Shown here: positions 44,188-63,035 of the stretch, in pieces | How the letters are laid out: each line of letters opens with the position of its first letter | Numbering within the stretch: position 1 is the stretch's first letter | Source: an uncultured Acidimicrobiia bacterium | Lineage (GTDB): Bacteria > Actinomycetota > Acidimicrobiia > Spongiisociales > UBA11373 | Direction of reading: 5' to 3' | Assembly (NCBI GenBank): GCA_964511945.1 | Contig: CAZEHO010000003.1 | Location: forward strand, 62,431-126,430 | Length of the DNA stretch: 64,000 bases | Made by a program: the position numbers and the translations under genes | The notes under the pieces: generated by a model | Databases searched by the model: none | What the model saw: the letters and a program-made list of their open reading frames with translations, nothing else | What the model was told of the DNA's origin: nothing

Positions 44188-47100
44188 CTATTCCTTCCCT
44201 GATCCCGAGTCGGTGGACGCGGCCTCCCCCGGATCAGCGATCCCCGGAGCCGGACCTGGAGAGCTCCCCTGCTGTGGTGGCCCCTGCATAGTCTGACCCG
44301 AAGGAGGTGACGGCGGTGGAGGCGGAGGCGGGGGCGGGGTGGTCCCCGGCTTGACGGTCGGCGACAGCGGTTCGGCGGGCGGTGACGGCGCCGACGGGGT
44401 GATCGACTCCGACAGCCGATTGGCGTCCTCGGGTGAAAGCGACTGCAGGATTCGCTGGGCATCGGCCGCCCGCCCGTCGCGGACCGCCGCTTCGAGTTGC
44501 CCTCTCGCCTGTTCGAGACCGACCTGGTGGTCCACGGCGCTGGTCGCACCTTGGAGGCGTTCGGTCTCCAGGGTGTTCCTGATGTGGGTGAGGGTGTCGA
44601 TCGGCTGTCCGGTACGAGGGTCGGTGAGGTTCGGCGGCAGCTTGTCGAGCAGCTCCTGGATATCGGGATTGGACGAAGGGTCGAGGAGAGCGTCGACATC
44701 GCTGCCCGGCTGCAGCGGTCCGACCACCTCACGCACCTGATCGGTCGCCGCATCCAGTACCCGGGTGTTCATGCGCTCGAGGATGTCCGCCTCGACGGCA
44801 GCCCGGGTGTCCGGATCGAGTGAGTCCAGGTAGTCGCGAACCCGCGGGTTCTCGGCCAGCGTCGTTCGCGGGTCGGTGCTGGTGACCACCCGCTCGGCAT
44901 CGATGTCGCTGGGATCGAGCGGCGTATTCGGACCCGCCTCCGGCCCGAGGTGCTGCTCGAACGCGTCGCGGGTCTCATCGTCCAAGCCGTCCCAGAAGTC
45001 ATTGATCGGACCCGGGTTGCCGCCCTGCTGGGTCGACTGATCCATGGCCTCCTGCAACCTCACGACCAGGCCCTCGTTCTCGAAGATGGTCCACCCGGTA
45101 TCGCCGGCTCCCTGCAACCGCTCCGCCTCCAAGGTGTTGCGGATCTGTTCGAGCGGGTCGATCTGATCGCCGGTGTTCGGATCGGTCAGGCGATGGGGCA
45201 GCTGATCGAGCAACTCCTGCAGGTCTGGGTTCCGGGACGGGTCGAGGAGGACGTCGATCTCGTCACCCGGTCCGAGTGGTCCGACGATGTCGCGTACCCG
45301 GTCGGTGGCCGCCTCGATGACCCGGCCGTTCATCCGATCGAGGAGGCTTGCCTCGACCGCCGCTCTCGTCTCGTGATCCAGCGAGTCCAGGTAATCCCGG
45401 AGTTGTGGAGTCTCGATGAGGACGGCTCCGGGATCGTCGGCGGTAACGACCCGTTCCGGATCGAGCGCATCGGGTCGTCCGCCACCCGACGTCGGTCCCC
45501 CATCGCCCCCGGGTGGGAATCGTTCATCGAGATAGTCCCGCTCGGCGTCACTCAGACCTTCCCAGAACTTATCGACGGGTCCCGGGTCGCCGCCCTGCAG
45601 GCGCGACTGCTCCAACGCGTCCTGGAACTTGATGACGACACCCTCACCACGGAAGATCGTCCACGCCATCTCCTCGGCGACTTCCACCCGTTCTGCCTCG
45701 AGCACGTTGTGGATGTGGATGAGCGGATCGATCCGCTCGCCCGTCCTCGGATCCGTCAGGTGCTCGGGCAGGCGGTTGATCAGATCCTGCAGATCGGGAT
45801 TCGCCGATGGATCCAGCAGTCGATCGAGATCGGCGTCGGGCCCGATCGGCCCGATCACGTTACGGACCTGGTCGGTCGCTGAATCCAGCAGCCGGTCATT
45901 CAGCCGGTCGACCAGCTCCTGCGTCACTGCGATGGCGTCGCCGTGCGGCAGATCATTCAGCGCTTCGCGGACCGCATCGGATTGCAGGAGTTCATCGGGA
46001 TCGAAGAAGTCCTGCGGAGTACCCGACCCGCTCGGCTGCATCGGCGCCGATTCGCTGATGAGATCCCGCAGTCCGGACCAACTGCCGTCCTGCCACGCAC
46101 CCAGAATCCGCTCCACCGACATCCCGGCGTTGGCAAGGGCGGTCGCCAGCAGCAGTGCTTCTCCGACGAGTCCGGCCACCGAGAGCCGTACTGCTGCCGA
46201 CGGCGGCAAGCCGGATTCCCCGGCGAGCAGCTGCTGTGCAAGGGGATCGTTGCTCAGGTCGATGCCGTCGGTGGCCCCCCACATGGCGTTGACGGCCGAG
46301 ATGTCCCATTCGCCCCGTTCGTTGATGTTCTCGGCGGTTCGCACGACCTGCGGATCGGCCATACCGCCCGGGGTGAAGACCTCGCCCGACCCGGGCACGC
46401 CGTCGTTCTTTTCGCCGCAGAACGCGATGATCACGTCGGTCTGCACCTCGCCCTCCGGCGTCTCGGGACGAACGGCGATCACTTCGCCACCGGCCGTGAT
46501 CATGGTCTGCACCGATGTGTCGCCGGGCGTGAGCTGCAGTCCGATCGGCACGCGGATGTAAATGGTCTCCGCGGTTGAATTGGTTGTCCGCACCCGGATC
46601 GACGATCCGTAGTAGGAGCCGTTTCCGCGGAGTTCGACGGTCAGCCCGTCAACCTTGCCGGCGTCGGTGAACAGGTCCGAGAGGTCATGGACCGTGGCTC
46701 CGACTGGGGCCTGATCGACGGTTTCGGCCGTTGCGGTGCCGGGGAGGCTCAGCAGCAACCCCAGAGCGAGGACGGCGTAAACCGTTGTTCGCGCCTGCGC
46801 CGCGCCGAGGGCATTCGACCGCCCGAGCATGAGTCCGCCGAGCAGGGCGGCGCCGAAAAACGACCCGGCCGTCCCCAAGGGGATCAGCCCCGAGCGGTTG
46901 AGGGCGCCGGCCAGCTGCATCAGGGTGATCCCGGCTCCCCACCCGACGATGCCGAGCACGCTACGGCTGGCGAAGGCGGCTCCATCGGCGACCCGGATCA
47001 TCAACTGCCTGCCCTGGAAGACGCCAATGCCGAGACCGGCCGCCAGGCCCAACACGAGGTAGACGGGAGGCGTCTCGGCACCGTGGACCAGAGTCAGGAC

Positions 47101-47250
47101 GATCGCGGTAGCAGCCGAGAGCAGGAACCTGACCAGCTCCAGGCGGGGCCGGATCCGGGTTTCCCGCCGAACCATGAAGACCGCGAGGAGCAACGCGGCG
47201 ATCGACAGCGGGATCAGGACGATGCTGATGATTCGGGCGACGGCACCCAT
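44188..47250 (-). CDS. Large membrane protein: N-terminal multi-TM region, signal-like segment, three internal roughly 155-aa repeats, Pro-rich C-terminal tail
   Basis: 1020 aa. Repeats of D(S/A)ATDQVR(N/D/E)V(I/V)GP(I/L)GP..(D/E)(L/I)D.LLDPS.NPD(L/I)Q(D/E)L(I/L).(R/Q/K)LP..LTDP.TG..IDPL..I.N.LE.ER... The tail runs ...GTTPPPPPPPPPSPPSG. Confidence 0.65.
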   Translation of the reverse strand: MGAVARIISIVLIPLSIAALLLAVFMVRRETRIRPRLELVRFLLSAATAIVLTLVHGAETPPVYLVLGLAAGLGIGVFQGRQLMIRVADGAAFASRSVLGIVGWGAGITLMQLAGALNRSGLIPLGTAGSFFGAALLGGLMLGRSNALGAAQARTTVYAVLALGLLLSLPGTATAETVDQAPVGATVHDLSDLFTDAGKVDGLTVELRGNGSYYGSSIRVRTTNSTAETIYIRVPIGLQLTPGDTSVQTMITAGGEVIAVRPETPEGEVQTDVIIAFCGEKNDGVPGSGEVFTPGGMADPQVVRTAENINERGEWDISAVNAMWGATDGIDLSNDPLAQQLLAGESGLPPSAAVRLSVAGLVGEALLLATALANAGMSVERILGAWQDGSWSGLRDLISESAPMQPSGSGTPQDFFDPDELLQSDAVREALNDLPHGDAIAVTQELVDRLNDRLLDSATDQVRNVIGPIGPDADLDRLLDPSANPDLQDLINRLPEHLTDPRTGERIDPLIHIHNVLEAERVEVAEEMAWTIFRGEGVVIKFQDALEQSRLQGGDPGPVDKFWEGLSDAERDYLDERFPPGGDGGPTSGGGRPDALDPERVVTADDPGAVLIETPQLRDYLDSLDHETRAAVEASLLDRMNGRVIEAATDRVRDIVGPLGPGDEIDVLLDPSRNPDLQELLDQLPHRLTDPNTGDQIDPLEQIRNTLEAERLQGAGDTGWTIFENEGLVVRLQEAMDQSTQQGGNPGPINDFWDGLDDETRDAFEQHLGPEAGPNTPLDPSDIDAERVVTSTDPRTTLAENPRVRDYLDSLDPDTRAAVEADILERMNTRVLDAATDQVREVVGPLQPGSDVDALLDPSSNPDIQELLDKLPPNLTDPRTGQPIDTLTHIRNTLETERLQGATSAVDHQVGLEQARGQLEAAVRDGRAADAQRILQSLSPEDANRLSESITPSAPSPPAEPLSPTVKPGTTPPPPPPPPPSPPSGQTMQGPPQQGSSPGPAPGIADPGEAASTDSGSGKE
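44500..46020 (-). repeat. Three diverged tandem intragenic repeats (about 465 nt each) inside the 44188-47250 gene
   Basis: Protein-level triplication visible in the translation; the nucleotide copies are diverged. Confidence 0.6.
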
Positions 47251-47911: not shown

Positions 47912-49945
47912 TCAGTTGGTCAGATGGTGCAGCAGGAACCCGAAGGTGTCGGCGGTCTCTTCGATGAGCTTCGAGGTCGGCTTGCCCAGGCCGTGACCGG
48001 CCCTGGTTTCCACCCGCACGAGGAGCGGGTTCCCCGAACTCCCACCGGCCGCATACTGCAGCGCGGCGGCGAACTTCAGCGAGTGCATCGGCACCACTCG
48101 GTCGTCGCTCTCGGCAGTCATGATCAACGTCGGTGGATAGGTCGACGCATCACCCACGTTGTGGAGCGGCGAGTAGGCGGACAGCCACCGGAATGCTTCG
48201 GGGTCATTGATGGCGTCGCCGTATTCGACCGTCCAGAAACGCCCGGCCGTGAAGAGCTGATACCGGAACATGTCGGCGACCGGCACCTGGGTCACGACGG
48301 CACCGAACAGATCTGGTCGCTGCACGAGAGTCGCCGCCGTCAGCAGGCCTCCGTTGGAGCGGCCCCGGATCCCGAGCTGAGGTGTCGTGGTAACGCCCTC
48401 AGCAATGAGCTGCTCGGCACAAGCGATGAAGTCGTCGAACACCTGCTGCTTGTTTCCCAGCATCCCCTGTTCGTGCCAGGTCTCGCCCTGCTCGGTCCCG
48501 CCGCGGATGTTGGCAACGACAACCACCCCACCCGCCTCCAGCCAGGCCAGGCGGGCCGGGTCGTACATCGGGGTGCTGGTCGCGGTGAATCCGCCGTACC
48601 CGTAGAGCTCGGTCGGTGCCGGCAGTGGAGTCTCCGCCAACCGCACGCAGAACATGCCCACGGCGGCTCCATCGGTCGAGGTGGCATGGCGGCGCTCCAC
48701 GATCACCCGGTCGGGATCGAGGCGGGGCTCGGCCCCGGCGAACACCGAGGTGACACCGTCTTCCCAGCGCAGCGCACCCGGTGGATGTAGGAACGATTGG
48801 AACGAGACGAACACCGTTGGTTCCTGCGGCCGGCCGTGGATCTCGGTCACCGTTCCGGCGGCGGGGAGGGCGAACTCGCCGTCCGGGGTCCCATCGATAC
48901 CAAACACCCGGATGCGATGGGACGCTTCGTCGAGTGAAACCAGCAGCAGGCGATTCGCTGCCGCCATAGCGATCTCGACCGGCATGGAGCCTTCGGGAAT
49001 CAGCTCGATGCGATCCTCCGGCGAATCGAGCGGGATGCCGACGACCCTGCCGTTTGGCGCATCGAGATCGGTGAGCACGATCAAGTTCCCATCGTCGTGC
49101 AGCAGAAACTCGTGCATCGCAACACCGGTGTCGACGATCCTGACGAACTGGGCATCCGGTTCGTCGAGGGGCAGGACGAGCAGTCCGGTCTGTCGGGATG
49201 TGCCGTCGAACTCGGTCAGCATCAGGAACGCCTCGTCGTGGGTCACCTCGGCCCAGTACCCCAGATCGGGACGCTCCGGATTGGCAAAGATCAGAACGTC
49301 CTCATCCTGCGGCGTGCCGAGCCGGTGGTAGTAGACGGTCTCGTTCTCGAAGAGGCCGACGTCACCCTCCGGCAGATCGGGGAAGCGGCTGTAGAAGAAC
49401 CCCTCCCGATACCAGGCAATCCCGGTGAAACGCAGGTGGTGAAGTTCATCCGGTAGATCCTCTCCCGTCGCCGTGTCACGCACCCGAGCGATCTGACGGT
49501 CCGACCCGGCTTCGGAGACCGTGTAGCCGAGCAGGCGGCCGTCGGGTGAGAGCGACCACACACTGATTGCAACGGCGCCGTCGTCGGACATCGTGTTGGG
49601 GTCGATGAGCACCTCGGGCTCCGACCCCTCCCGGGACCGGTAGATGCTGGGCTGTTCGGCAATGCCATCGTTGTGGGTCCACACGGTGACGCCGTTGCAA
49701 AGCACGGGTGCCGACGTACGCGGTGTGTCCCAGAGCGCAGCGATACGTTCCCGGAGTGAAACCACCTCTGGAAGCGATGCCAGGTAGGGGAAGGTGACGT
49801 CGTTCTGGGCACGAACGAACTCCTTCGTCTCGGGAGCGTCGGGATCTTCGGTCCAGCGGTATGGGTCGGCGACCGGGGTCCCGTGGTAGTCGTCGATTTG
49901 GTCGGAGCGTCGTGCGGACGGGTACGTGAAGGCCATGGCCCGCAA
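47912..49945 (-). CDS. Prolyl oligopeptidase (S9A family serine peptidase)
   Basis: N-terminal beta-propeller signature (DDYHG..V.DPYRWLED) and catalytic GRSNGGLL. Confidence 0.85.
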   Translation of the reverse strand: MRAMAFTYPSARRSDQIDDYHGTPVADPYRWTEDPDAPETKEFVRAQNDVTFPYLASLPEVVSLRERIAALWDTPRTSAPVLCNGVTVWTHNDGIAEQPSIYRSREGSEPEVLIDPNTMSDDGAVAISVWSLSPDGRLLGYTVSEAGSDRQIARVRDTATGEDLPDELHHLRFTGIAWYREGFFYSRFPDLPEGDVGLFENETVYYHRLGTPQDEDVLIFANPERPDLGYWAEVTHDEAFLMLTEFDGTSRQTGLLVLPLDEPDAQFVRIVDTGVAMHEFLLHDDGNLIVLTDLDAPNGRVVGIPLDSPEDRIELIPEGSMPVEIAMAAANRLLLVSLDEASHRIRVFGIDGTPDGEFALPAAGTVTEIHGRPQEPTVFVSFQSFLHPPGALRWEDGVTSVFAGAEPRLDPDRVIVERRHATSTDGAAVGMFCVRLAETPLPAPTELYGYGGFTATSTPMYDPARLAWLEAGGVVVVANIRGGTEQGETWHEQGMLGNKQQVFDDFIACAEQLIAEGVTTTPQLGIRGRSNGGLLTAATLVQRPDLFGAVVTQVPVADMFRYQLFTAGRFWTVEYGDAINDPEAFRWLSAYSPLHNVGDASTYPPTLIMTAESDDRVVPMHSLKFAAALQYAAGGSSGNPLLVRVETRAGHGLGKPTSKLIEETADTFGFLLHHLTN

Positions 49946-49969: not shown

Positions 49970-52900
49970 CTACTTATAGATGCTGATCGAGCCGACCGCC
50001 CCGGAGCCGTCACCCGACCAATTGGTGGTGTCGTCACCCGGCTTACCGATCACGATCAGATCGCCGCCCGCTGCCACCGACCAACCCATGAAGTCGTCGG
50101 CGTCGGCGTCGTTGTCGTCCAGTCGAGTCTCGTACCAGGTGTCGTTAGTGGAGTGATGGAAGATGAAGGCCGCGCCGCCGTTCGTCGCCTCGCCGTCGTC
50201 CATCGAGGCGCCAACCACGACCCAGCGGCCGACGACCCCGACGGCACACCCGAAGTCGTCGCTGGTGGACGGGGTCGCGGGTTGCAGCATGGTGGCTTGG
50301 GACCATGCGGCTCCGCCCCAGTCGTAGACGTACGCAGCGCCGTGGTTCCCGCCGTAGCCGGTGGCCCCAACCACCAACCGGTCGCCGGAGACCGCCACCG
50401 CGGTTCCGAAACTGTCGTTGGCATCGCCGGCGGTGAGCTTGGCTTCGTTCCAGGCCGAACCGCTCCAGCGATAGGCGTAGGCCGCCCCGGCGCCGTCGCC
50501 GCTGGCGTCCTCACCGGCGGCACCCACCACCACGAAGTCGCCGGCCGTCGCCACTGCGGCACCGAATCGGTCATCGGACTCAGCGTCGGATGCCGTCAGC
50601 TTCGTCTCGACCCAGGCGGATCCATTCCAGTCGTAGACGTATACCGCGCCGCCGGGGGCATCCTTCGGAGCACCGACGATGATGCGATCGCCGTCGATGG
50701 CGACTGCGGCGCCGAACTGGTCGTTCGCCGTGCCGTCCGAAGCCTGGAGCGTGGCAGTCTTCGACCAGGTGCCTCCGCTGTTGGTGTAGACGTAGGCGGC
50801 GCCCTCGCTCCAATCCTGACCCGGTGCTCCCACAACGATGCGGTTGCCGGAAACGGCCACCGACCGGCCGAACTTCATCCAGGTCGGGGTCCCGACCGGG
50901 ACCGGTGCGTTGACAATGGCCTCATTCCAGGCGCCGCCGGCGCCGGGGGTGTAGATCTGGATCCGACCGTGGTTGCCCGAACCGGTGAAGTCGGCTCCTC
51001 CAACCACCGTTGCGCCGTCCGTCGCCACCGAGATCCCGTGGCTCTCCCAGGCGGCGTTGGCTCGATCGAACCATATCTCGAGCCAGTTCTTCGGGCCGAC
51101 GTCGAAGGTGACCGTTGCCGTGTTCGAGTCCTCGAAGCCGTCGCTGGCTCGATACGTGAAGGTGTCGCTGCCGATGAAGTCGCCTTCCGGGGTGTAGGTG
51201 AACGACCCATCGGCGCTCAGGTCGAGGGTGCCGTGGGCCGGGCTTGTTTCGGGCTGAACCCCGGCGGTCCCAGCATCGGTGTCGACGACCGTGAGGTCGT
51301 TGCCGTCGGGGTCGGTGTCGTTGGACAGGATGCCGGATGCAGCGTTGCGGCTGATCGGCCACTCCATCACCGTGGCTAACGGGCCATCGTTCACCGCCGT
51401 CGGTGGATCGTTGGGCGGGTTGATCGTGATGGTCACCGTCGCCACGTTCGATTCGAGGCTCCCGTCCGTTGCCCTGTAGGTGAAGGTGTCCTCGGTGGCC
51501 GTGCCGCCATCGTGGACGTAGGTGAACGTGCCGTCGAGGTTGAGGGTGAGGTCACCGTGATCGACGTTGCCTACCGGCTGGACGCCTGCGGTGCCCGCAT
51601 CGTTGTCGACCACCTGAAGCGCATCGCCGTTGGCATCGGTGTCGTTGTCGAGCACCCCGTTGACGACGAGAGTTTCGCCCTGCTCGACCGAGTAGCCGTC
51701 GTCGTTCGCCAGCGGCGCAACATTCACAGCCGGGATCACCTTGATCTTGATGCCGTCGCCGGGTCCTCCCGTGTTGTGGTAGTAGAGCGCGTTGTTGGCG
51801 CCCGGATTCACATACGGAGTGATCTCGATCCAACTCCAATGCCCGTCGCTTCCCTTCGTCACGGCATCCCACTCGATGTCCCAGTAGTAGGAGTCGTCGG
51901 TGAAGTAGCGCCACTCCGAGATCCGGGTCCCGTTGATGTCGAGCCGGCCCTGCCAGGAGCCGAACCGCCACGTATCCCACTCCCGCGGGACGCACCCGCC
52001 GAAGCCGTCGTTGTCGCAGCCGTAGTGGGCGACAAACACCGCGGTGTAGCTCGACGGGAGGGTGAACGGGTATTGGGTCGTGCCGAACGTATCCGTGCCG
52101 AGCCACATGACGTCGGCAGGCTCGATGGTCAGCGTCACCGTGGCCAGGTTCGAGTTGCCCGATCCGTCGGTCGCCCGGTACGTAAAAGAGTCTGCAGACG
52201 CCGCGGAGCCATCGTGGACGTACATGAAGGATCCGTCGGCATTCAGTGTGAGCGCACCATGGGCCGGCGGCGTGACCGGCGCAGGACCGGCAACGGTGAT
52301 CGGGTCGCTCCCGGGATCCGAGTCGTTGTCGAGCACCCCGTCGGCCGGGACGAACAGCGTGTCCTCCCGGTGCACCGTGTAGGCATCGTCGGCGGCACAC
52401 GGATCGCAGATGGTGATGGTGACCGTGGCGGGATCGGACAACGCGGTTCCGTCCCAGATCCGATAGGTGAACGAGTCCGCAGTGGTGTCCGAACCATCGT
52501 GGGTGTAGGTCACCCGGCCGCTGCCGTACACGGTTGCGTTGCCGTGCACCGGATTCGTGTAGGACCACACGGAGAGGGCATCGTCTTCGGCGTCCGCGTC
52601 GTTCTCGAGTACACCGGGAGCGGCGTCATCGATCGCCCCGCCCTTCGCCACCGCATACCCATCGTCCACAGCCACCGGGTCGTCGTTGACCGGGTTGATC
52701 GTGATCGTGACCGTGGCCTCGTTCGATTCGGCCGCGCCGTCGGTCGCCTTGTAGGTGAACGAATCCGTCGTCGTCTCGGAACCGTCGTGGGTGTAAGTGA
52801 ACGACCCGTCGGCGGCCAGGTTCAGGGTCCCGTGGGACGGCCCGCTCTGTGCCTGGGCGTCGACCACCTGCAGCGGATTCGGCCCGTCCGGGTCGATATC

Positions 52901-55900
52901 GTTGTCCAGCACCCCGTTCACGTTCAGGATCCCGCCCTCGTCGACGCTGTACCCATCGTCCACAGCCACCGGGTCGTCGTTGACCGGGTTGATCGTGATC
53001 GTGACCGTGGCCTCGTTCGATTCGGCCGCGCCGTCGGTCGCCTTGTAGGTGAACGAATCCGTCGTCGTCTCGGAACCGTCGTGGGTGTAAGTGAACGACC
53101 CGTCGGCGGCCAGGTTCAGGGTCCCGTGGGACGGCCCGCTCTGTGCCTGGGCGTCGACCACCTGCAGCGGATTCGGCCCGTCCGGGTCGATATCGTTGTC
53201 CAGCACCCCGTTCACGTTCAGGGTCCCGCCCTCAGTGACGGCGTGGGAATCGTCGACCACCGTCGGAGGATCGTTCACCGGAGTGATCGTCAGAGTGACC
53301 GTGGCGGGGTCGGAATCATCGGTTCCGTCGTTGGCGGTGTAGGTGAACGAATCCGTCGTGGTCTCGGAACCGTCGTGGGTGTAGCTGAACGTGCCGTTGG
53401 CATTGAGCGTGAACGCGGCATCGTGATCGGGTTCGTCGACGACCACCGCCGTCAACCGACCCCCTTCCACGTCGGTGTCGTTGGCGAGCACTCCGTCCGG
53501 CACGAGGTAGTCGAGCCCCCCGCCTTCAAAGAGCGTGGTGTCACCTTCCGACCCGGCGGCGGGATCGTCGACGGCAGCCGGCGGGTCGTTGACTGGAATG
53601 CCGAGGATGTCGTAGCAGCCAACCTCTGTGGCACCGTCGAATCCGGTGATCTTGACCGGGAAGTCCTCACCGCCGTCGTGGGTGTAGGAGAAAGTGCCGT
53701 CGGCATTCACATTGAATGCGGCGGCAAAGGCCGCGCCCTCGGCGTGCGTGGTCGGCGCACCGAAGTCGCCGTCGAAGCTGCCGCCTTCGGTGACCGGCGC
53801 TTGATCGCAGGTCTGGACTCCGTCGAGCGGGTTGCTGACCGTGCGCTCGATTGGCGTCGGATCCTGCTCGTCCAGCTCGATGTCCCACACGATGACGGGA
53901 TCGGGATCGATCACCTGATCGGGCGGAACCGAGAACACCAGATCGTTGATGTGGGCGGCGAACTCCTTGGGGATGGTGAGCACATACTCGAAGGGGTCGG
54001 AACCGGGTCCGCCGCCCACCGCCCACACCCGGATGACCATCTGCAGGAAGTGTCCGACCGATCCGTCGCCCGCGTTCGTGCGGATCGCCCGGTACCTGGT
54101 CCCGGTGGCCACCGTGCCCGCGCCGTTCTGGGTCACTATCTCTTCGGTCTCGGCGGTGACCGTCTGGGCAGGCGCAGTCATGGTGGCGCTGTCGAGGTCG
54201 TCCTCCACCGCCGCATCGCCGGGTGTCGAGTCGGGGTCCGCTTGATCGGAGGCCGCGACGGACGCCGTGTTTTCGATCTGTCCTTCACCACTGACCCGAG
54301 TCGTGATCTGGAGGCTCGCGGACGCACCCGGTGCAAGTGCACCGACCGTCCACACGCCGGTCGCGGCGTCGTAGGTGCCGCCCCCATCATCCGAGATGTA
54401 GTTCAACCCGTCGGGCAGTTGGTCGCTCACGGAGACTCCGGTGGCCTGGCCGGGCCCGCCGTTGCTCACCACGATCGTGAAGACGACTGCATCGAGGTAG
54501 CCGGGGTTCGCTTCGTCGACGCTCTTGGTAAGGGAAAGGTCGGCGGAAGTCCCGGCAGGGTCGTAGCCCTGACATTCACTGATAGTGCCGGCCCAGTTGC
54601 ACACCTGGAAGGGGTCCGAGTCGCCCCAGGAGCCGATCCCGTAGCGGTCGAGCCGTGCAGCCGAGAGCTCCCATGCGGCGCCGGTATCGACGTAGATGAG
54701 CACATCGATCCCGGGCGGATCCTCGTTCGGTTTGTAGTCACTGCGGCGCGGATAGAACGGCTCGTACACCATGGCGGCGCGTTGACCGCCGACGATCCCG
54801 ACGGCCCACTGGCCCCGAAACTCGAGCGGCACCCGCAGGAAGCTCCGGTTGATCCCACCGAGCCAGGCCGCCAGTCCGGCAGGCATCTGGGGTTGCGGGT
54901 TCGTTCCCGGGTTCGCGATCCACCCTGCAAACGCATCCACTGCAGCGATCAGATCCGCCGGGGCACCGTCGAGAATCACCGAAGTCTCGGGCTGCTCACA
55001 CGTCGCGAACACCGGACCGTCGATGCACGACTGGGTGCCCCACGACCCAATGATCAGATCGACACCAATCCCACCGTCGACCTGATCCGGCGGATCCCCC
55101 TCCTTGGTGCCGCGGGCTTTGACAATGTCTTCACCCTGCCCCCCAATCAGGGTCTCCCCACCATCCGTCGATCCAAAGATCCGATCGTTCTGGCCCCCAC
55201 CATCCATGTAGTCGCGCCCGGCGCCACCAAAGATGATGTCCTTGCCGGTCCCCCCGAAGATCTGATCGTTGCCCTTCCCGCCGTCCAGACCAACCGCCCC
55301 TCCAGCCATGACTGATTCGAATTGCTGCAGATTCACGGACGGGTCGAGATTCGGCGGGTAATCGTGACCCGGACCACCGTAGATCTTGTCCGGCCCGTTG
55401 CCGCCGAAGATCTGATCCCGACCCTTGTTCCCAGACAGGTTGTCGGGACCCGGACCCCCAAAGATGATGTCGTCGCCGGAGTTCCCCCAAATCCAGTCCG
55501 CTCCACCATGGGCCCCGTAGTCGGCGATCCCGATTCCGTACCACTGGCCATTCACGAACGCCTTGCCGCCACCGATCAGGATGTCGTTGCCGCCAAACCC
55601 GCAAATCATGTCATTGCCCAACCCGGCGTCAATGAAGTCGTCGCCCGACGTGCCGGCGATCACATCGTCGCCGTCCGTTCCGGGGAAGACCACGTCGTCC
55701 GGCCACTCCTCGGGGACCACGTGAGTGGCCTTTTGCCCGCCGCAGTAGGTCTCTGCCGAGGCCACACCGCCCACCATCACCAGCACCGACGCAATCACCG
55801 CCGACACCAGAGCGACCGAGGAGAGATGACGACAGCGGTTGCGCGACGGGGAGGGGTAGCTCGGCACCCTGGTTGTCTCGGACGTGGCCGGGAAGGGGAC

Positions 55901-56017
55901 GCGTTCCGATGTGAGACGGGAACGCCTCGATCTCAATGGCCGCTCTCTTATCCAGTGCAGCACGAAAGGCCTCATTCGCGCTCTCGCCAATCTCCCCCAT
56001 CTCCTGTAAGGGTGCAA
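49970..56017 (-). CDS. Giant (about 2000 aa) secreted multi-repeat adhesin-like protein. Domains in order: RTX-type Ca-binding GGxGxD repeats, a DUF11 domain, tandem cadherin-like/VCBS (T-95-type) repeats, C-terminal FG-GAP beta-propeller repeats.
   Basis: GNDMICGFGGNDILIGG and GGPGPDNLSGNKGRDQIFGGNGPDKIYGG (RTX nonapeptides). LSLTKSVD...VFTIVVSNGGPG (DUF11). Many VNDPP.AVDD...TYTHDGSETTTDSFTY..TDG repeats. FGAAVA..GD..VVGAP (FG-GAP) repeated about 6 times. Signal-like segment LSSVALVSAVIASVLVMVGGVASA. The exact start is uncertain (ATG 55975 or a nearby GTG). Confidence 0.8.
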   Translation of the reverse strand: MHPYRRWGRLARARMRPFVLHWIRERPLRSRRSRLTSERVPFPATSETTRVPSYPSPSRNRCRHLSSVALVSAVIASVLVMVGGVASAETYCGGQKATHVVPEEWPDDVVFPGTDGDDVIAGTSGDDFIDAGLGNDMICGFGGNDILIGGGKAFVNGQWYGIGIADYGAHGGADWIWGNSGDDIIFGGPGPDNLSGNKGRDQIFGGNGPDKIYGGPGHDYPPNLDPSVNLQQFESVMAGGAVGLDGGKGNDQIFGGTGKDIIFGGAGRDYMDGGGQNDRIFGSTDGGETLIGGQGEDIVKARGTKEGDPPDQVDGGIGVDLIIGSWGTQSCIDGPVFATCEQPETSVILDGAPADLIAAVDAFAGWIANPGTNPQPQMPAGLAAWLGGINRSFLRVPLEFRGQWAVGIVGGQRAAMVYEPFYPRRSDYKPNEDPPGIDVLIYVDTGAAWELSAARLDRYGIGSWGDSDPFQVCNWAGTISECQGYDPAGTSADLSLTKSVDEANPGYLDAVVFTIVVSNGGPGQATGVSVSDQLPDGLNYISDDGGGTYDAATGVWTVGALAPGASASLQITTRVSGEGQIENTASVAASDQADPDSTPGDAAVEDDLDSATMTAPAQTVTAETEEIVTQNGAGTVATGTRYRAIRTNAGDGSVGHFLQMVIRVWAVGGGPGSDPFEYVLTIPKEFAAHINDLVFSVPPDQVIDPDPVIVWDIELDEQDPTPIERTVSNPLDGVQTCDQAPVTEGGSFDGDFGAPTTHAEGAAFAAAFNVNADGTFSYTHDGGEDFPVKITGFDGATEVGCYDILGIPVNDPPAAVDDPAAGSEGDTTLFEGGGLDYLVPDGVLANDTDVEGGRLTAVVVDEPDHDAAFTLNANGTFSYTHDGSETTTDSFTYTANDGTDDSDPATVTLTITPVNDPPTVVDDSHAVTEGGTLNVNGVLDNDIDPDGPNPLQVVDAQAQSGPSHGTLNLAADGSFTYTHDGSETTTDSFTYKATDGAAESNEATVTITINPVNDDPVAVDDGYSVDEGGILNVNGVLDNDIDPDGPNPLQVVDAQAQSGPSHGTLNLAADGSFTYTHDGSETTTDSFTYKATDGAAESNEATVTITINPVNDDPVAVDDGYAVAKGGAIDDAAPGVLENDADAEDDALSVWSYTNPVHGNATVYGSGRVTYTHDGSDTTADSFTYRIWDGTALSDPATVTITICDPCAADDAYTVHREDTLFVPADGVLDNDSDPGSDPITVAGPAPVTPPAHGALTLNADGSFMYVHDGSAASADSFTYRATDGSGNSNLATVTLTIEPADVMWLGTDTFGTTQYPFTLPSSYTAVFVAHYGCDNDGFGGCVPREWDTWRFGSWQGRLDINGTRISEWRYFTDDSYYWDIEWDAVTKGSDGHWSWIEITPYVNPGANNALYYHNTGGPGDGIKIKVIPAVNVAPLANDDGYSVEQGETLVVNGVLDNDTDANGDALQVVDNDAGTAGVQPVGNVDHGDLTLNLDGTFTYVHDGGTATEDTFTYRATDGSLESNVATVTITINPPNDPPTAVNDGPLATVMEWPISRNAASGILSNDTDPDGNDLTVVDTDAGTAGVQPETSPAHGTLDLSADGSFTYTPEGDFIGSDTFTYRASDGFEDSNTATVTFDVGPKNWLEIWFDRANAAWESHGISVATDGATVVGGADFTGSGNHGRIQIYTPGAGGAWNEAIVNAPVPVGTPTWMKFGRSVAVSGNRIVVGAPGQDWSEGAAYVYTNSGGTWSKTATLQASDGTANDQFGAAVAIDGDRIIVGAPKDAPGGAVYVYDWNGSAWVETKLTASDAESDDRFGAAVATAGDFVVVGAAGEDASGDGAGAAYAYRWSGSAWNEAKLTAGDANDSFGTAVAVSGDRLVVGATGYGGNHGAAYVYDWGGAAWSQATMLQPATPSTSDDFGCAVGVVGRWVVVGASMDDGEATNGGAAFIFHHSTNDTWYETRLDDNDADADDFMGWSVAAGGDLIVIGKPGDDTTNWSGDGSGAVGSISIYK
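52750..53345. repeat. Perfect or near-perfect 294-bp tandem duplication inside the giant adhesin gene (two identical 98-aa cadherin-like repeat units)
   Basis: Nucleotide stretches 52797-52935 and 53091-53229 are identical (the shadow ORFs 52797..53048 and 53091..53342 share 46 identical N-terminal residues). The minus-strand protein repeats NVNGVLDNDIDPDGPNPLQVVDAQAQSGPSHGTLNLAADGSFTYTHDGSETTTDSFTYKATDGAAESNEATVTITINPVNDDPVAVDDGY exactly twice. Confidence 0.8.
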
Positions 56018-56112
56018 CGGACGAAAGTCACAATTGGTGACGATGCGTGGTCACCGACACTGTGCACACAAGATCGCTACCCTGCGTAGTCGAGAGCGTC
56101 GAGGGGTTCGGC

Positions 56113-57087
56113 GTGACGGGACCACGAAGAATCCGCCGGTTGCTGGTGCTGCTGGCCTCAGCTGCGGCGCTGGTCGTCGCCGGGGTCGTCCCGATGGCAG
56201 CTGCCGACGAGGAGTCGGCCGAACGCCTCGCCGCATCGGACTACCTGCTCGCCATGGGTGCCGCCGGTGACCTGGTCGCCGATCTCCAGCGATCCCTCAC
56301 CGACTTCGGCATCGACGCCGGGCCGATCGACGGCATCTTCGGAGCGCTCACCGAGGCGGCAGTGCTCGAATTCCAATCCCGTGCGGAGATCGACGTCGAC
56401 GGCTACGTCGGCCCCAAGACCAAGGCCGCCATTCTTCGAGCTGTCACCGGCGACACGCCCGATCCCACACCGCCTCCGGTCGTCACGGGTCCCGCCCTCT
56501 CCCCCGGAGCCGGCGGCGACGTCGTCGTCACGCTGCAGGAGGAACTGACCCGCACGGGCTTCTACCGGGGTGAACTCGATGGTGACTTCGGACCGCTCAC
56601 GGCGTCGGCGGTGGTCGCGTTCCACAAGGTGTGGGGTCTCGACCGAACCTCCACCTGGAACAGCTCGGATTGGGACCGAATCGACGGCTGGTTCCCCGCT
56701 CCCCCCGGATACGGCTCGGCGGCGTTCCGTCTCGAGATCGATCTCACCCGCGAGGTGGTCTTCGTCGTTCGCAACGGTACGGTCGCAGCGGTGATGCCGG
56801 TGTCGTCCGGGAACGGCGAGCTCTACACCAGCCGCTCCGGTGCGGTGGTCCCGGCACGGACACCACAGGGCGACTTCACGATGTTCCGCTCCGTCGACGA
56901 GTGGGAACGCTCCTACCTCGGTGAGATGTACGAGCCGTGGTACTTCTACGGGGGATACGCCCTGCACGGGTCGACCTTCGTACCGGCGTATCCGGCGTCA
57001 CACGGATGTGTGCGGGTGATTGTCGCCGACATGGACTGGCTCGACGGGCGCCTGTGGATCGGGATGCCGGTCCATGTTTGGGGCTGA
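56113..57087 (+). CDS. L,D-transpeptidase (YkuD domain) with two peptidoglycan-binding (PG_binding_1) repeats
   Basis: GTG 56113 with RBS GAGGGG. Signal peptide. Two LQ..L...G...G..DG.FG..T..AV..FQ PGBD repeats. Catalytic HGSTFVPAYPASHGCVRV. Confidence 0.8.
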   Translation: MTGPRRIRRLLVLLASAAALVVAGVVPMAAADEESAERLAASDYLLAMGAAGDLVADLQRSLTDFGIDAGPIDGIFGALTEAAVLEFQSRAEIDVDGYVGPKTKAAILRAVTGDTPDPTPPPVVTGPALSPGAGGDVVVTLQEELTRTGFYRGELDGDFGPLTASAVVAFHKVWGLDRTSTWNSSDWDRIDGWFPAPPGYGSAAFRLEIDLTREVVFVVRNGTVAAVMPVSSGNGELYTSRSGAVVPARTPQGDFTMFRSVDEWERSYLGEMYEPWYFYGGYALHGSTFVPAYPASHGCVRVIVADMDWLDGRLWIGMPVHVWG

Positions 57088-57149
57088 TCGCTCCCGGTGC
57101 CGGCACTCCACCCGTGCGTTTGCAGGCCCCGCCCCGTACCATGCGCGCC

Positions 57150-57953
57150 ATGCCAATGTTCATGGATGTTCATCCCGGGCTCGGGGACGCCACCCCTGAG
57201 GACGTCGCCGAAGCTCACGCCAAGGATCTCGCCATGCAGGACGAGTACGGGGTCCGCTGGCTGAGCTACTGGTTCAACGACCCCGAGGGCAAGGCGTTCT
57301 GCCTCGCCGAGGCGCCATCCGCCGATGCCCTCAAGCAATGCCACAAGGCGGCGCACGGGTTGATGCCGAACGAGATCGTCGAGGTCCCGGCACCGACCCT
57401 GGCAATGTTCATGGGGACCTGGAACAGCAACTCGGAAGATCGTGCCATGCAGGGCGAGGACCCCGACAGCGGTCTCCGAACGATCATGTTCACCGACATC
57501 GAGGGTTCGACCGCCCTCAGCACCCGGGAGGGTGACGCGGCTGCGATGGAGGTCGTTCGCCTTCACGATGCGATCGTCCGGGGATGTCTGGAGGAACACA
57601 GCGGCCGGGAGATCAAACACACCGGCGACGGTGTGCTGGCATCGTTCACGTCGGTGGCCGGAGCAGTGGAGACCGCCGCCGAGATTCAGCGCAAGGCGGC
57701 AACGCACGAAAACCTCGGGATCAAGGTCGGTCTCAGCGCCGGCGAACCCGTTGCCGAGAGCGACGACCTCTACGGCGCCGCAGTGAACCTGGCGGCCAGG
57801 ATCTGTGCTCACGCCCAGGGCGGGCAGGCGCTGGCGGCCTCCACGGTCCGCGATCTATCGATAGGCAAGCACGCTGAGTTCGTGGAGCAGGGCACCATCG
57901 CCCTCAAGGGATTCCCGGAGCCGGTTCGGCTCTTCGAGATCGTTTGGCAGTGA
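57150..57953 (+). CDS. Fusion protein: N-terminal DUF4242 (SCO4226-like metal-binding) domain plus C-terminal class III adenylate/guanylate cyclase domain
   Basis: N-term MPMFMDVH...YGVRWLSYWFND..G.AFCLAEAPSADA (DUF4242 pattern). C-term FTDIEGSTAL, HTGDGVLASF, GLSAGEPV...YGAAVNLAARI (CHD cyclase motifs). Confidence 0.7.
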   Translation: MPMFMDVHPGLGDATPEDVAEAHAKDLAMQDEYGVRWLSYWFNDPEGKAFCLAEAPSADALKQCHKAAHGLMPNEIVEVPAPTLAMFMGTWNSNSEDRAMQGEDPDSGLRTIMFTDIEGSTALSTREGDAAAMEVVRLHDAIVRGCLEEHSGREIKHTGDGVLASFTSVAGAVETAAEIQRKAATHENLGIKVGLSAGEPVAESDDLYGAAVNLAARICAHAQGGQALAASTVRDLSIGKHAEFVEQGTIALKGFPEPVRLFEIVWQ

Positions 57954-60960: not shown

Positions 60961-62034
60961 TCAGCCACTGATTCGAACCGGAACCCTCTTCCCACCCCAG
61001 GCTCCCGGCTCAGGTTCGAACACTCCGGAGCACCGGGTACCGCATCCTTGACAGGCACCGGCACCGTCGAGGCCCCACGCACTGAGGTGATAGCGGCTGC
61101 GGACGATCAAGACGCGGCCACACTCGTGGCAATAGGTGCTCTCGGCAGCCGGGTCGTGCACGTTGCCGACGTACACGTGGCGCAGCCCGTTGTCGATTCC
61201 GATGGCTCGGGCCCTTCGCAGTGTTGCCGCCGGTGTCGGCGGAGAATCGGTCATCCTGAAGTCGGGATGGAACGCGCTGAAGTGCACGGGCACTTCCGGT
61301 CCGAGGTGTTCGACGATCCACGTGGTGAGCGCGTCCACCTCCCCGTCGGAGTCGTTGTATCCGGGAATGAGCAGCGTGGTCACTTCGAGCCAGGTCCTGC
61401 TGCCGGCCACGTACTCGAGCGTGTCCAGAACGACGCCGAGGCGCCCTCCGCAGGTGCGCCGGTAGAAGTCCTCGTTGAAGCTCTTGAGATCGATGTTGGC
61501 CGCATCGATGTGTCCGTAGAACTCCGCTCTCGGCTCCGGGGTGACGTACCCGGCGGTCACGGCGACGGTGGCAACGCCCTCCTCATGGCAGGCGGCGGCA
61601 ACATCGATGGCGTACTCATGGAAGACGACCGGATCGTTGTAGGTGAAGGCGACGCTGCGGCACTCGAGTTGGCGAGCGCGTCGGGCGATCGCCTGCGGTG
61701 TCGCCTGCTCGCCCAGTCGGTCGAACTCACGAGCCTTCGAGATCTCCCAGTTCTGACAGAACCGGCAGGCGAGGTTGCAGCCGGCTGTGCCGAACGACAG
61801 CACCGGTGTGCCGGGGAGGAAGTGGTTGAGCGGCTTCTTCTCGATGGGGTCGATGCAGAAGCCACTGGAACGGCCATACGTCGTGAGCACGATCTCATCG
61901 TCGTGACGGGCGCGAACGAAGCACAGCCCGCGCTGTCCGTCGTGCAGCTTGCAGAACCGGGGGCACAGGTCGCACTGGATCCGGCCGTCATCGAGATCGT
62001 GCCAGTAGCTGGTGGAGACAATCGAGGCACTCAT
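60961..62034 (-). CDS. AmmeMemoRadiSam system radical SAM enzyme
   Basis: CIDPIEKKPLNHFLPGTPVLSFGTAGCNLACRFCQNWEISK (CxxxCxxC radical SAM cluster with a family-specific flank). ATG 62034 overlaps the upstream radical SAM gene's stop as ATGA. Confidence 0.8.
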   Translation of the reverse strand: MSASIVSTSYWHDLDDGRIQCDLCPRFCKLHDGQRGLCFVRARHDDEIVLTTYGRSSGFCIDPIEKKPLNHFLPGTPVLSFGTAGCNLACRFCQNWEISKAREFDRLGEQATPQAIARRARQLECRSVAFTYNDPVVFHEYAIDVAAACHEEGVATVAVTAGYVTPEPRAEFYGHIDAANIDLKSFNEDFYRRTCGGRLGVVLDTLEYVAGSRTWLEVTTLLIPGYNDSDGEVDALTTWIVEHLGPEVPVHFSAFHPDFRMTDSPPTPAATLRRARAIGIDNGLRHVYVGNVHDPAAESTYCHECGRVLIVRSRYHLSAWGLDGAGACQGCGTRCSGVFEPEPGAWGGKRVPVRISG

Positions 62035-62996
62035 GCGACGGCTCCATCGATGCGCCACAGGCCGGCCCGGCGGGCGGCGTCGTGGGCTGCGGTGAGTTCA
62101 TCGCTGCGGGGCCTGCGGTTGATGTCGAGATGGCGGGGGCTGGTCGGAACCCGGTGAGCAGGCCGGTACTGACCCATGATGTTGATGTAGGTGTCCGCTG
62201 AGAGATCATGGAGCCACTCGAAGATGGCGGCGGACTCGTCGATCAGGCCCGGCATCACCAGGTGGCGGATCAGGACACCGCGGCGGGCGAGGCCGTCGGA
62301 CCCGAATCGCAGCGGGCCAACCTGGCGGTGCATCTCAGCAATCGCAGCCCTGGCGGCGTCGGGGTAATCGGCGGCCCGCAGCAACCGGCGCGCGGTATCC
62401 GCCTCCCACACCTTGAAGTCGGGCATGTAGATGTCGACCAGTCCGTCCATCAATTGCAGTGAACTCAGCGCGTCGTACGCCGAGGTGTTGTAGACGATCG
62501 GGATCTCGAGCCCGAGCGGCACCGCCAGGGCGATGGCCTCGACGAGCTCGGGGGCGACGTGTTCCGGGGTCACGAAGTTGATGTTGTGGCACCCGGCGCC
62601 CTGTAGCCCGAGCATCAGATCGGCGATTTGCTCTGCGGTCATCTCCCGTCCGGCGCCGCCGGCCGAGATGTCCCAGTTCTGACAGAACACACACTTGAGA
62701 TTGCAGTAGGAGAAGAAGATGGTGCCCGACCCGCGCCGGCCCGACAGGCATCGTTCCTCCCCGTGATGGGGGGCGGCCTGGGCGACGATCGCGTTCCGGC
62801 CGGTGTGGCAGACGCCGCGTTCGTCGGCCAGCCGATCGACGCTGCAGTCGCGGGGACAGGCGCGACAGTTACCGAGTTCCCGCCGGGCGGCTTCCACCTT
62901 GCCGGGCAGGAGCCCGCGACGGGCGGTGCGCAGGTAGGCGGGCTCGAAGCGGCCGATCAGGAATCGCTCGTCGAGTCCCGCCGCTCTCGGGTTCAT
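62031..62996 (-). CDS. PflX-like (COG1313) radical SAM protein
   Basis: SGTIFFSYCNLKCVFCQNWDIS radical SAM motif; 321 aa; paralogous to the downstream AmmeMemoRadiSam radical SAM gene. Confidence 0.75.
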   Translation of the reverse strand: MNPRAAGLDERFLIGRFEPAYLRTARRGLLPGKVEAARRELGNCRACPRDCSVDRLADERGVCHTGRNAIVAQAAPHHGEERCLSGRRGSGTIFFSYCNLKCVFCQNWDISAGGAGREMTAEQIADLMLGLQGAGCHNINFVTPEHVAPELVEAIALAVPLGLEIPIVYNTSAYDALSSLQLMDGLVDIYMPDFKVWEADTARRLLRAADYPDAARAAIAEMHRQVGPLRFGSDGLARRGVLIRHLVMPGLIDESAAIFEWLHDLSADTYINIMGQYRPAHRVPTSPRHLDINRRPRSDELTAAHDAARRAGLWRIDGAVA

Positions 62997-63035
62997 CTCA
63001 GATCAAGGTACTCCCGGCCGGCAGAGAAGGGTGGC

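Follow-up and report, generated by a model that had tools for sequence, protein, structure and literature searches.

In this work we describe a gene for a giant repeat protein on the minus strand of a 64,000-nucleotide stretch of DNA from an uncultured Acidimicrobiia bacterium (contig CAZEHO010000003.1; the whole stretch is called the window in the following). Taking all lines of evidence together, we consider it rather likely that the gene product is a Sec-exported, Ca2+-dependent, fibrillar adhesin-like protein of the cell surface or the extracellular space, and that a tract of identical DNA shared by two neighbouring units of its repeat stalk, U2 and U3, goes back to recent intragenic recombination.

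The open reading frame (ORF) comprises 2015 codons when counted from the first in-frame TTG at position 56017. The GC contents at its three codon positions are 0.63/0.51/0.82, which is the coding signature of this genome, and an earlier note on this DNA was thus correct in calling a gene of 2015 aa at 49970-56017. The overall GC content of the gene equals that of the rest of the window. As both GC and the GC content at third codon positions (GC3) match the surroundings, the gene is native to the genome.

Domain architecture

From the N- to the C-terminus the domains follow one another in the order signal peptide, RTX block, orphan region A, DUF11, orphan region B, units U0 to U5, insert domain, units U6 and U7, and propeller (Table 1). 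The earlier note had read the protein as a mosaic of RTX, DUF11, cadherin-like and C-terminal FG-GAP modules, and the Pfam and NCBIfam models bear this out. In the RTX block the HemolysinCabind model (PF00353) scores 86.4 bits in four stretches (cutoff 23), a motif scan finds eight GGxGxD motifs from aa 187 to 323, and a sequence search of the PDB gives matches to the RTX blocks of CyaA and to a lipase entry. The DUF11 domain is recognized by PF01345 (110.6 bits, cutoff 24.6) and by TIGR01451 (49.4 bits, cutoff 24).

The stalk is laid out as one degenerate unit (U0) and five full tandem-95 units, followed by the beta-sandwich insert domain and two further units. Big_9, Cadherin_4 and Cadherin_5 each match in seven stretches, and the tandem-95 repeat model NF012211 reaches 278.9 bits in seven stretches, well above its cutoff of 90. 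With this cutoff exceeded, the protein is a genuine member of the tandem-95 group. The number of repeats had been put at more than eight; we count seven scoring units and one degenerate unit at the N-terminal end.

The chain ends in a propeller of the FG-GAP type, for which FG-GAP_2 (PF14312) scores 192.6 bits in six stretches and a motif scan finds seven blades of the form [FHM]GxxV[AG]. For this part, an AlphaFold2 (AF2) model computed from aligned propeller windows of homologues shows 28 strands, with a pLDDT of 87 and a pTM of 0.90. The top PDB matches of the model in Foldseek are integrin alpha propellers (E about 1e-12, TM-score 0.70-0.74). No catalytic domain was found in the protein by Pfam, NCBIfam or PDB sequence search.

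A near-identical pair of stalk units

Tandem Repeats Finder (TRF) reports one array, at 52656-53391, with a period of 294 and 2.5 copies. Apart from the tract shared by U2 and U3, the window contains no exact repeat of 40 nt or more, and the tract is therefore far beyond chance. At a shift of 294 the exact identity extends over 273 nt, with 52656-52928 (in U3) being equal to 52950-53222 (in U2), and in the protein over 91 aa (933-1023 and 1031-1121). The earlier note had claimed a perfect 294-bp duplication with 98 aa repeated exactly in units at about 52750-53345. The period stands, whereas the exact identity is shorter at both levels, and the two units together span 52658-53245. In the best full-period register there are six mismatches, all of which fall into a junction of 21 nt at 52929-52949.

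When the eight units are aligned codon by codon, U2 and U3 reach 98% DNA identity; the remaining pairs of units lie at 43-68%. The pair thus goes back to a very recent recombination relative to the array, as the earlier note had supposed. U2 and U3 also have unit-specific features in common, for example the PNPLQVVDAQAQSGP loop.

The junction reads AGC GTC GAC GAG GGC GGG ATC (SVDEGGI). It differs at 6 of the 21 positions from the head of U2 (GCC GTC ACT GAG GGC GGG ACC) and at 10 of 21 from the head of U4; for the two heads themselves we counted 7 differences in 21 by hand. The junction is therefore at background divergence, like any other unit boundary. The six differences to the U2 head lie in three codons, one of which is changed at all three positions (GAC vs ACT).

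A second patch of high identity is found between U1 (53339-53384) and U2 (53045-53090). Over these 46 nt, which on the minus strand are the codons for YTHDGSETTTDSFTY, there is one synonymous mismatch and the synonymous choices are otherwise identical, although the two units are only 66% identical overall. This patch may be what is left of a further short conversion event, and it hints at recurrent short conversion within the array.

Origin of the repeat pair

Recent intragenic recombination between the neighbouring units U2 and U3 is the most likely origin of the 273-bp tract. Two routes can be envisaged. Either two neighbouring units already existed and gene conversion carried 273 nt or more from one to the other, or a duplication or unequal crossover was followed by a second, short-patch event. 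Either way the earlier note was right in its general idea of a recent intragenic recombination and not in the specific form which it proposed.

This form was a single, very recent tandem duplication of 294 bp by slipped-strand mispairing or unequal crossover; the differences in the junction would then have arisen later. The period of exactly 294 bp (98 codons, one structural unit) is in line with such an event, as are the unit-specific features shared by U2 and U3 and the four unchanged codons of the junction, which are identical at synonymous sites too. A duplication or crossover in one step, however, leaves at least 294 nt of exact identity. We see only 273 nt, and a single clean duplication hence does not explain the tract. 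Further, the six differences are packed into three codons of one terminal block of 21 nt and none is found in the other 273 nt, for which uniform mutation of 294 bp gives a probability of (21/294)^6 = 1.3e-7, and the GAC/ACT codon differs at every position. The junction is diverged from both of its equivalents; a hybrid of the two neighbouring junctions, as predicted for an unequal crossover, was rejected by sequence comparison. In our view the one-step duplication is very unlikely.

An artefact of assembly must also be weighed. The true locus could carry another number of the 294-bp copies, or two units that are similar without being identical could have been merged into one consensus when the contig was assembled or polished. 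The protein forms a singleton cluster in the public collection and comes from one metagenome-assembled NCBI contig of 172,968 bp, and its nearest relatives, as judged by the Lon protease encoded in the window, are all metagenome-assembled genomes (MAGs). An exact repeat of 273 nt would exceed the usual k-mer sizes, and the succession core-junction-core would form a loop in the assembly graph whose number of turns can be fixed only with spanning reads. Published work warns against relying on short-read assemblies for adhesin genes with tandem repeats (bioRxiv 10.1101/2025.09.30.679566; PMC8201768). On the other hand, the junction at 52929-52949 is unique, has the core on both sides and does not combine the sequences of the other two junctions, so at least two tandem copies should be present in the reads. 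The reading frame is unbroken through the array, and the flanks of the array are unique on both sides. We therefore regard an artefact as improbable. Unless spanning reads were used, the two copies would be a lower bound, and only such reads would make the copy number at 52656-53222 trustworthy.

Where repeats are highly identical in their DNA, intragenic recombination and changes in repeat number are favoured (PMC8201768). By analogy, identical tracts of the kind seen here would be a substrate for the gain and loss of units, as in other repeat-bearing surface proteins.

Export and retention

The N-terminus consists of a basic stretch and a single hydrophobic segment that ends in ASA|E. In a Kyte-Doolittle plot values above 1.6 occur only in windows at aa 62-92; elsewhere the plot does not rise beyond 1.35. 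The ASA-E motif lies at aa 86-89, at the end of the hydrophobic segment, and we infer that cleavage would take place there. From this segment we also infer the export route by Sec.

The start codon is ambiguous. Besides the TTG at 56017 there is an ATG at 55975, which is used in the deposited version of the same protein (P0001, 2001 aa), and translation from a GTG at 55867, likewise in frame, would give 1965 aa. The leader takes a more usual form with the GTG start: its n-region is basic, the hydrophobic core has about 21 residues, and ASA|ET follows. We note that this leader resembles a standard actinobacterial signal peptide, and that the ATG start leaves a gap of about 70 nt to the start of the divergent L,D-transpeptidase gene at 56047.

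It had been suggested to look for sorting signals at the C-terminus and for type I secretion genes nearby. Regular expressions found no LPXTG/LAXTG motif, no lipobox and no PEP-CTERM signal in the protein, whose final residues belong to the last blade of the propeller. Pfam scans of 42 ORFs across the window detected no ABC exporter, no membrane-fusion protein, no TolC and no sortase. Actinomycetota are a monoderm lineage, and a TolC-dependent type I secretion system (T1SS) is not expected there.

These results bear directly on the idea that the protein is a classical RTX adhesin or toxin secreted by a T1SS. The RTX nonapeptides are present, and there are weak NCBIfam matches to the models for RTX hemolysin and for the large adhesins BapA/Bap/LapF (NF045619). 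Both matches, however, are far below the cutoffs (72 vs 1000 and 118 vs 180). The RTX block is N-terminal and stands behind a signal peptide, the chain ends in a propeller blade in place of a secretion signal, no genes for the secretion apparatus turned up among the 42 scanned ORFs, and the host is a monoderm actinobacterium. The idea is already effectively refuted, and we give it next to no probability.

The weakest point of our model is how the protein stays on the cell. It is possible that an uncleaved signal anchor holds the protein or that an orphan region binds non-covalently to the wall.

Orphan regions and a rare beta-sandwich domain

Orphan region A, between the RTX block and DUF11, contains four cysteines at positions 331, 340, 473 and 482. 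It has no Pfam match at E<=10 and no homologue in the word-index search, which is of low sensitivity and did not recover the parent protein either. Region A is a possible wall-binding or functional domain. Orphan region B likewise has no Pfam match at E<=10. It holds a motif of 38 aa, VLTIPKEFAAHINDLVFSVPPDQVIDPDPVIVWDIELD, at aa about 679-716, which is 50% identical to a stretch of another protein (P0121, 429 aa). This second protein ends in a domain of the same type as our insert domain; thus the two modules co-occur in at least two proteins.

The insert domain itself is predicted with confidence to be a beta-sandwich. It has no Pfam match at E<=10, and a profile of the domain gives only chance-level matches against PDB sequences. 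Its nearest solved folds are the sugar-binding beta-sandwiches of glycosidases (GH2, GH78 and GH35) and the carbohydrate-binding module (CBM) family CBM35. These are consistently the best structural matches and are alike in fold and of similar size. The Foldseek TM-scores are low, at 0.3-0.4. The insert has a conserved motif of its own (GW..L.VNG ... D.T ... G.N ... H...G.G), and it is very rare: at E<=1e-3, matches were found in only 20 of 1.84 billion representative proteins. Some of these proteins carry two copies, and most are without any Pfam domain. The copy studied here has an extra Cys-Cys loop (C1334..C1342). The insert belongs to a rare and unannotated family of predicted beta-sandwich domains.

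Proposed mode of action

We suggest that the protein works in the following steps. First, the N-terminal signal peptide or signal anchor would thread the chain over the single membrane through Sec, with the N-terminus leading. The RTX block would then emerge before the other domains and fold outside the cell into a Ca2+-bound beta-roll. Next, DUF11 and the eight tandem-95 units with their Asp/Asn-rich linkers (VNDxP...DNDxD) could form a Ca2+-stiffened stalk. Finally, the far end of the stalk would present the CBM-like insert domain and the seven-bladed, integrin-alpha-like propeller, which are candidate ligand binders; their target is perhaps a glycan. In RTX adhesins Ca2+ in the linkers has been shown to stiffen the tandem beta-sandwich extenders (PMC7493085), and the ligand-binding domains sit at the distal end (bioRxiv 10.1101/2025.09.30.679566). 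The earlier note had called the mosaic typical of giant adhesins. Pfam, NCBIfam, the propeller model and Foldseek uphold this architecture and, with it, the adhesin-like reading.

Several points weigh against our reading. No orthologue was found with six unique 8-mer peptide patterns in GTDB representative genomes or JGI metagenomes, nor among the 120 listed matches of one word-index protein search. In this list no match except the protein itself exceeds 53% identity, the matches of high identity cover only 6-9% of the query, and the best listed non-self match of comparable coverage has 30% identity over 49% of the length. There is no S-layer-homology domain and no C-terminal transmembrane segment, and as no known retention device was found the protein might simply be released. 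The roughly 310 residues of the two orphan regions could hold the real activity. The likeness of the insert to CBMs is weak. And for the repeat pair, units that are only about 60-70% identical would lack the long identical stretches from which homologous recombination usually starts, so that the conversion model is not a clean one.

A different role is therefore to be considered, namely that of a released polysaccharide-binding protein or a matrix or S-layer-like protein, or of a carrier of an enzyme or toxin in the orphan regions. The lack of a retention motif of known type, the two regions without family assignment and the accessory domains of glycoside hydrolases as the nearest folds of the insert are in keeping with such a role. 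Yet no catalytic domain was detected by the searches given above, a stalk with a distal binding module is the defining layout of fibrillar adhesins (bioRxiv 10.1101/2025.09.30.679566; PMC9210967), and the N-terminal hydrophobic segment of about 21 residues could anchor the protein in the membrane. We judge a role other than adhesion to be unlikely, and we favour the adhesin-like protein.

A bolder version of the adhesin-like reading, which we put forward only as a doubtful speculation, is that of a mirror-image RTX fibrillar adhesin made for export by Sec in a monoderm actinobacterium. The beta-roll would then be the ratchet or the base, and a new, very rare family of ligand-binding beta-sandwiches and the integrin-like propeller would be distal. 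In such a protein the beta-roll would be located on the end that exits first, as it is in the substrates of T1SS, where the C-terminus exits first. Folding driven by Ca2+ could thus serve as the same export ratchet or as a proximal base.

Comparison with known adhesins and related proteins

With the RTX adhesins LapA, MpIBP/MpAFP, FrhA, SiiE and BapA of Gram-negative bacteria the protein has in common the very large single chain, the Ca2+-binding RTX beta-roll, a long run of Ig-like extenders (linked by Ca2+ there, eight tandem-95 units here) and candidate ligand modules opposite the presumed cell-proximal end; binding by the CBM-like domain and the propeller is predicted. Identical tandem extender repeats are also present in MpAFP (PMC4083281). 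In RTX adhesins, however, the beta-roll is C-terminal and precedes the T1SS signal (bioRxiv 10.1101/2025.09.30.679566), whereas here it is found at aa 113-325. Pfam and NCBIfam matched no family of N-terminal retention modules, the scanned ORFs of the window include no T1SS genes, and the host is monoderm. The insert domain stands in line between units. With its beta-roll at the opposite end of the chain, and lacking a retention module, a T1SS signal and T1SS genes among the scanned ORFs, the protein is not a T1SS RTX adhesin. In its presumed way of working it rather resembles an RTX or fibrillar adhesin of reversed polarity.

Periscope proteins (SasG, Aap, Sgo_0707, Rib, Esp) project a binding domain on a stalk of tandem globular repeats, much as we propose here, and their high DNA identity between repeats has been put forward as a driver of recombination within the gene and of variable length (PMC8201768). 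Here only two of the eight units are near-identical, the others being at 43-68%, and there is no LPXTG cell-wall anchor. The protein is likewise set apart from the sortase-anchored proteins, as it has neither an LPXTG/LAXTG motif nor a hydrophobic segment beyond aa 92.

As to the tandem-95 proteins (NF012211; Big_9, Cadherin_4, Cadherin_5), the seven units place our protein well within this group. Many of the listed matches are alphaproteobacterial giants which join such repeats with RTX repeats. Few of the 120 join tandem-95 units with DUF11 (P0079) or FG-GAP_2 (P0008) and none joins all of them; the insert domain has no Pfam model, and its presence is not readable from the list. The propeller shares its seven blades and, in prediction, its superposable fold with the integrin alpha propeller. 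It differs from it in sequence (14-19% identity), in belonging to a bacterium and in having no beta-subunit partner.

Gene neighbourhood

The gene lies between a prolyl oligopeptidase gene and an L,D-transpeptidase gene, as had been stated (Table 1). The former starts about 25-35 nt past the stop codon of the giant gene, downstream on the same strand.

Table 1. Positions of the giant gene, its domains and the adjoining genes in the window
Feature	Position	Strand	Basis
Whole ORF	49970..56017	-	ORF, GC3 0.82
Hydrophobic segment, Sec-type signal peptide or signal anchor, about aa 62-88	55757..55834	-	Kyte-Doolittle; ASA|ET end
RTX (GGxGxD) Ca-binding nonapeptide block, about aa 113-325	55043..55681	-	Pfam, motifs, PDB sequence matches
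Orphan region A, aa 330-492	54542..55030	-	No Pfam match at E<=10
DUF11, aa 493-599	54221..54541	-	PF01345, TIGR01451
Orphan region B, aa 600-747	53777..54220	-	No Pfam match
Tandem-95/Big_9/cadherin-like units U0 (degenerate) to U5	52091..53776	-	Pfam, NCBIfam, unit comparison
Near-identical U2/U3 pair	52656..53222	-	TRF, shift-294 and unit comparisons
Beta-sandwich insert domain, about 110-125 aa, aa 1310-1432, at the U5/U6 boundary	51722..52090	-	Predicted fold
Tandem-95 units U6 and U7	51065..51694	-	Pfam, NCBIfam, unit comparison
Seven-bladed FG-GAP beta-propeller, aa 1660-2015, to the last residue	49973..51040	-	Pfam, motifs, AF2, Foldseek
Prolyl oligopeptidase (S9), cytoplasmic-looking, no visible signal peptide	47912..49945	-	Pfam
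Exported L,D-transpeptidase (YkuD) with two PG_binding_1 domains, divergent from the giant gene	56047..57087	+	Pfam

On the opposite strand the giant gene is overlapped by an ORF of 1267 aa (51512-55315, +). We rejected it as a gene because the GC3 signature is on the minus strand; it is the usual shadow ORF of a genome with 66% GC.

The Lon protease encoded in the window is 70-82% identical to the Lon proteins of dozens of Acidimicrobiia MAGs, which places the host in this class of the Actinomycetota. Among its closest relatives (loci L001-L080) many come from MAGs titled 'Acidobacteriota' or even 'Gammaproteobacteria' or 'Boseongicola', yet they cluster with the Acidimicrobiia at 77-82% identity. 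The oddly titled MAGs are probably mislabelled bins. No tRNAs were found in the window, and a scan for promoters and terminators gave background level only.

Some other genes of the window are recorded here. An ORF of 1020 aa (44188-47250, -) has the GC3 of a coding sequence and no significant Pfam match. It shows several N-terminal hydrophobic segments, three internal repeats of about 170 aa with the pattern ..RDYLDSLD..TRAAVEA..DRVR..VGPL..LLDPS.NPD.QELL..LP..LTDP.TG..IDPL..IRN.LE.ERLQG.. and a proline-rich tail. Directly after the L,D-transpeptidase gene, an ORF at 56937-57953 (+) codes for a fusion protein in which an SCO4226-like (nickel-responsive) domain is joined to the catalytic domain of an adenylate/guanylate cyclase. 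Two adjacent and slightly overlapping radical-SAM genes (60961-62097 and 62031-63002, -) adjoin the C-terminal domain of an FAD-linked oxidase.

Conclusions

In summary, this is a routine giant Ca2+-binding protein whose repeats are locally homogenised; the homogenised pair is an ordinary mark of recent recombination among repeats, and no new kind of system is involved. Three points are of modest value. The protein provides an example of an adhesin-like architecture in uncultured Acidimicrobiia, which have been little studied. It has RTX repeats at the N-terminus, behind a signal peptide and in a monoderm host. Finally, the analysis brings to light a rare and unannotated beta-sandwich family which, to judge from its predicted fold, may be a new binding module.

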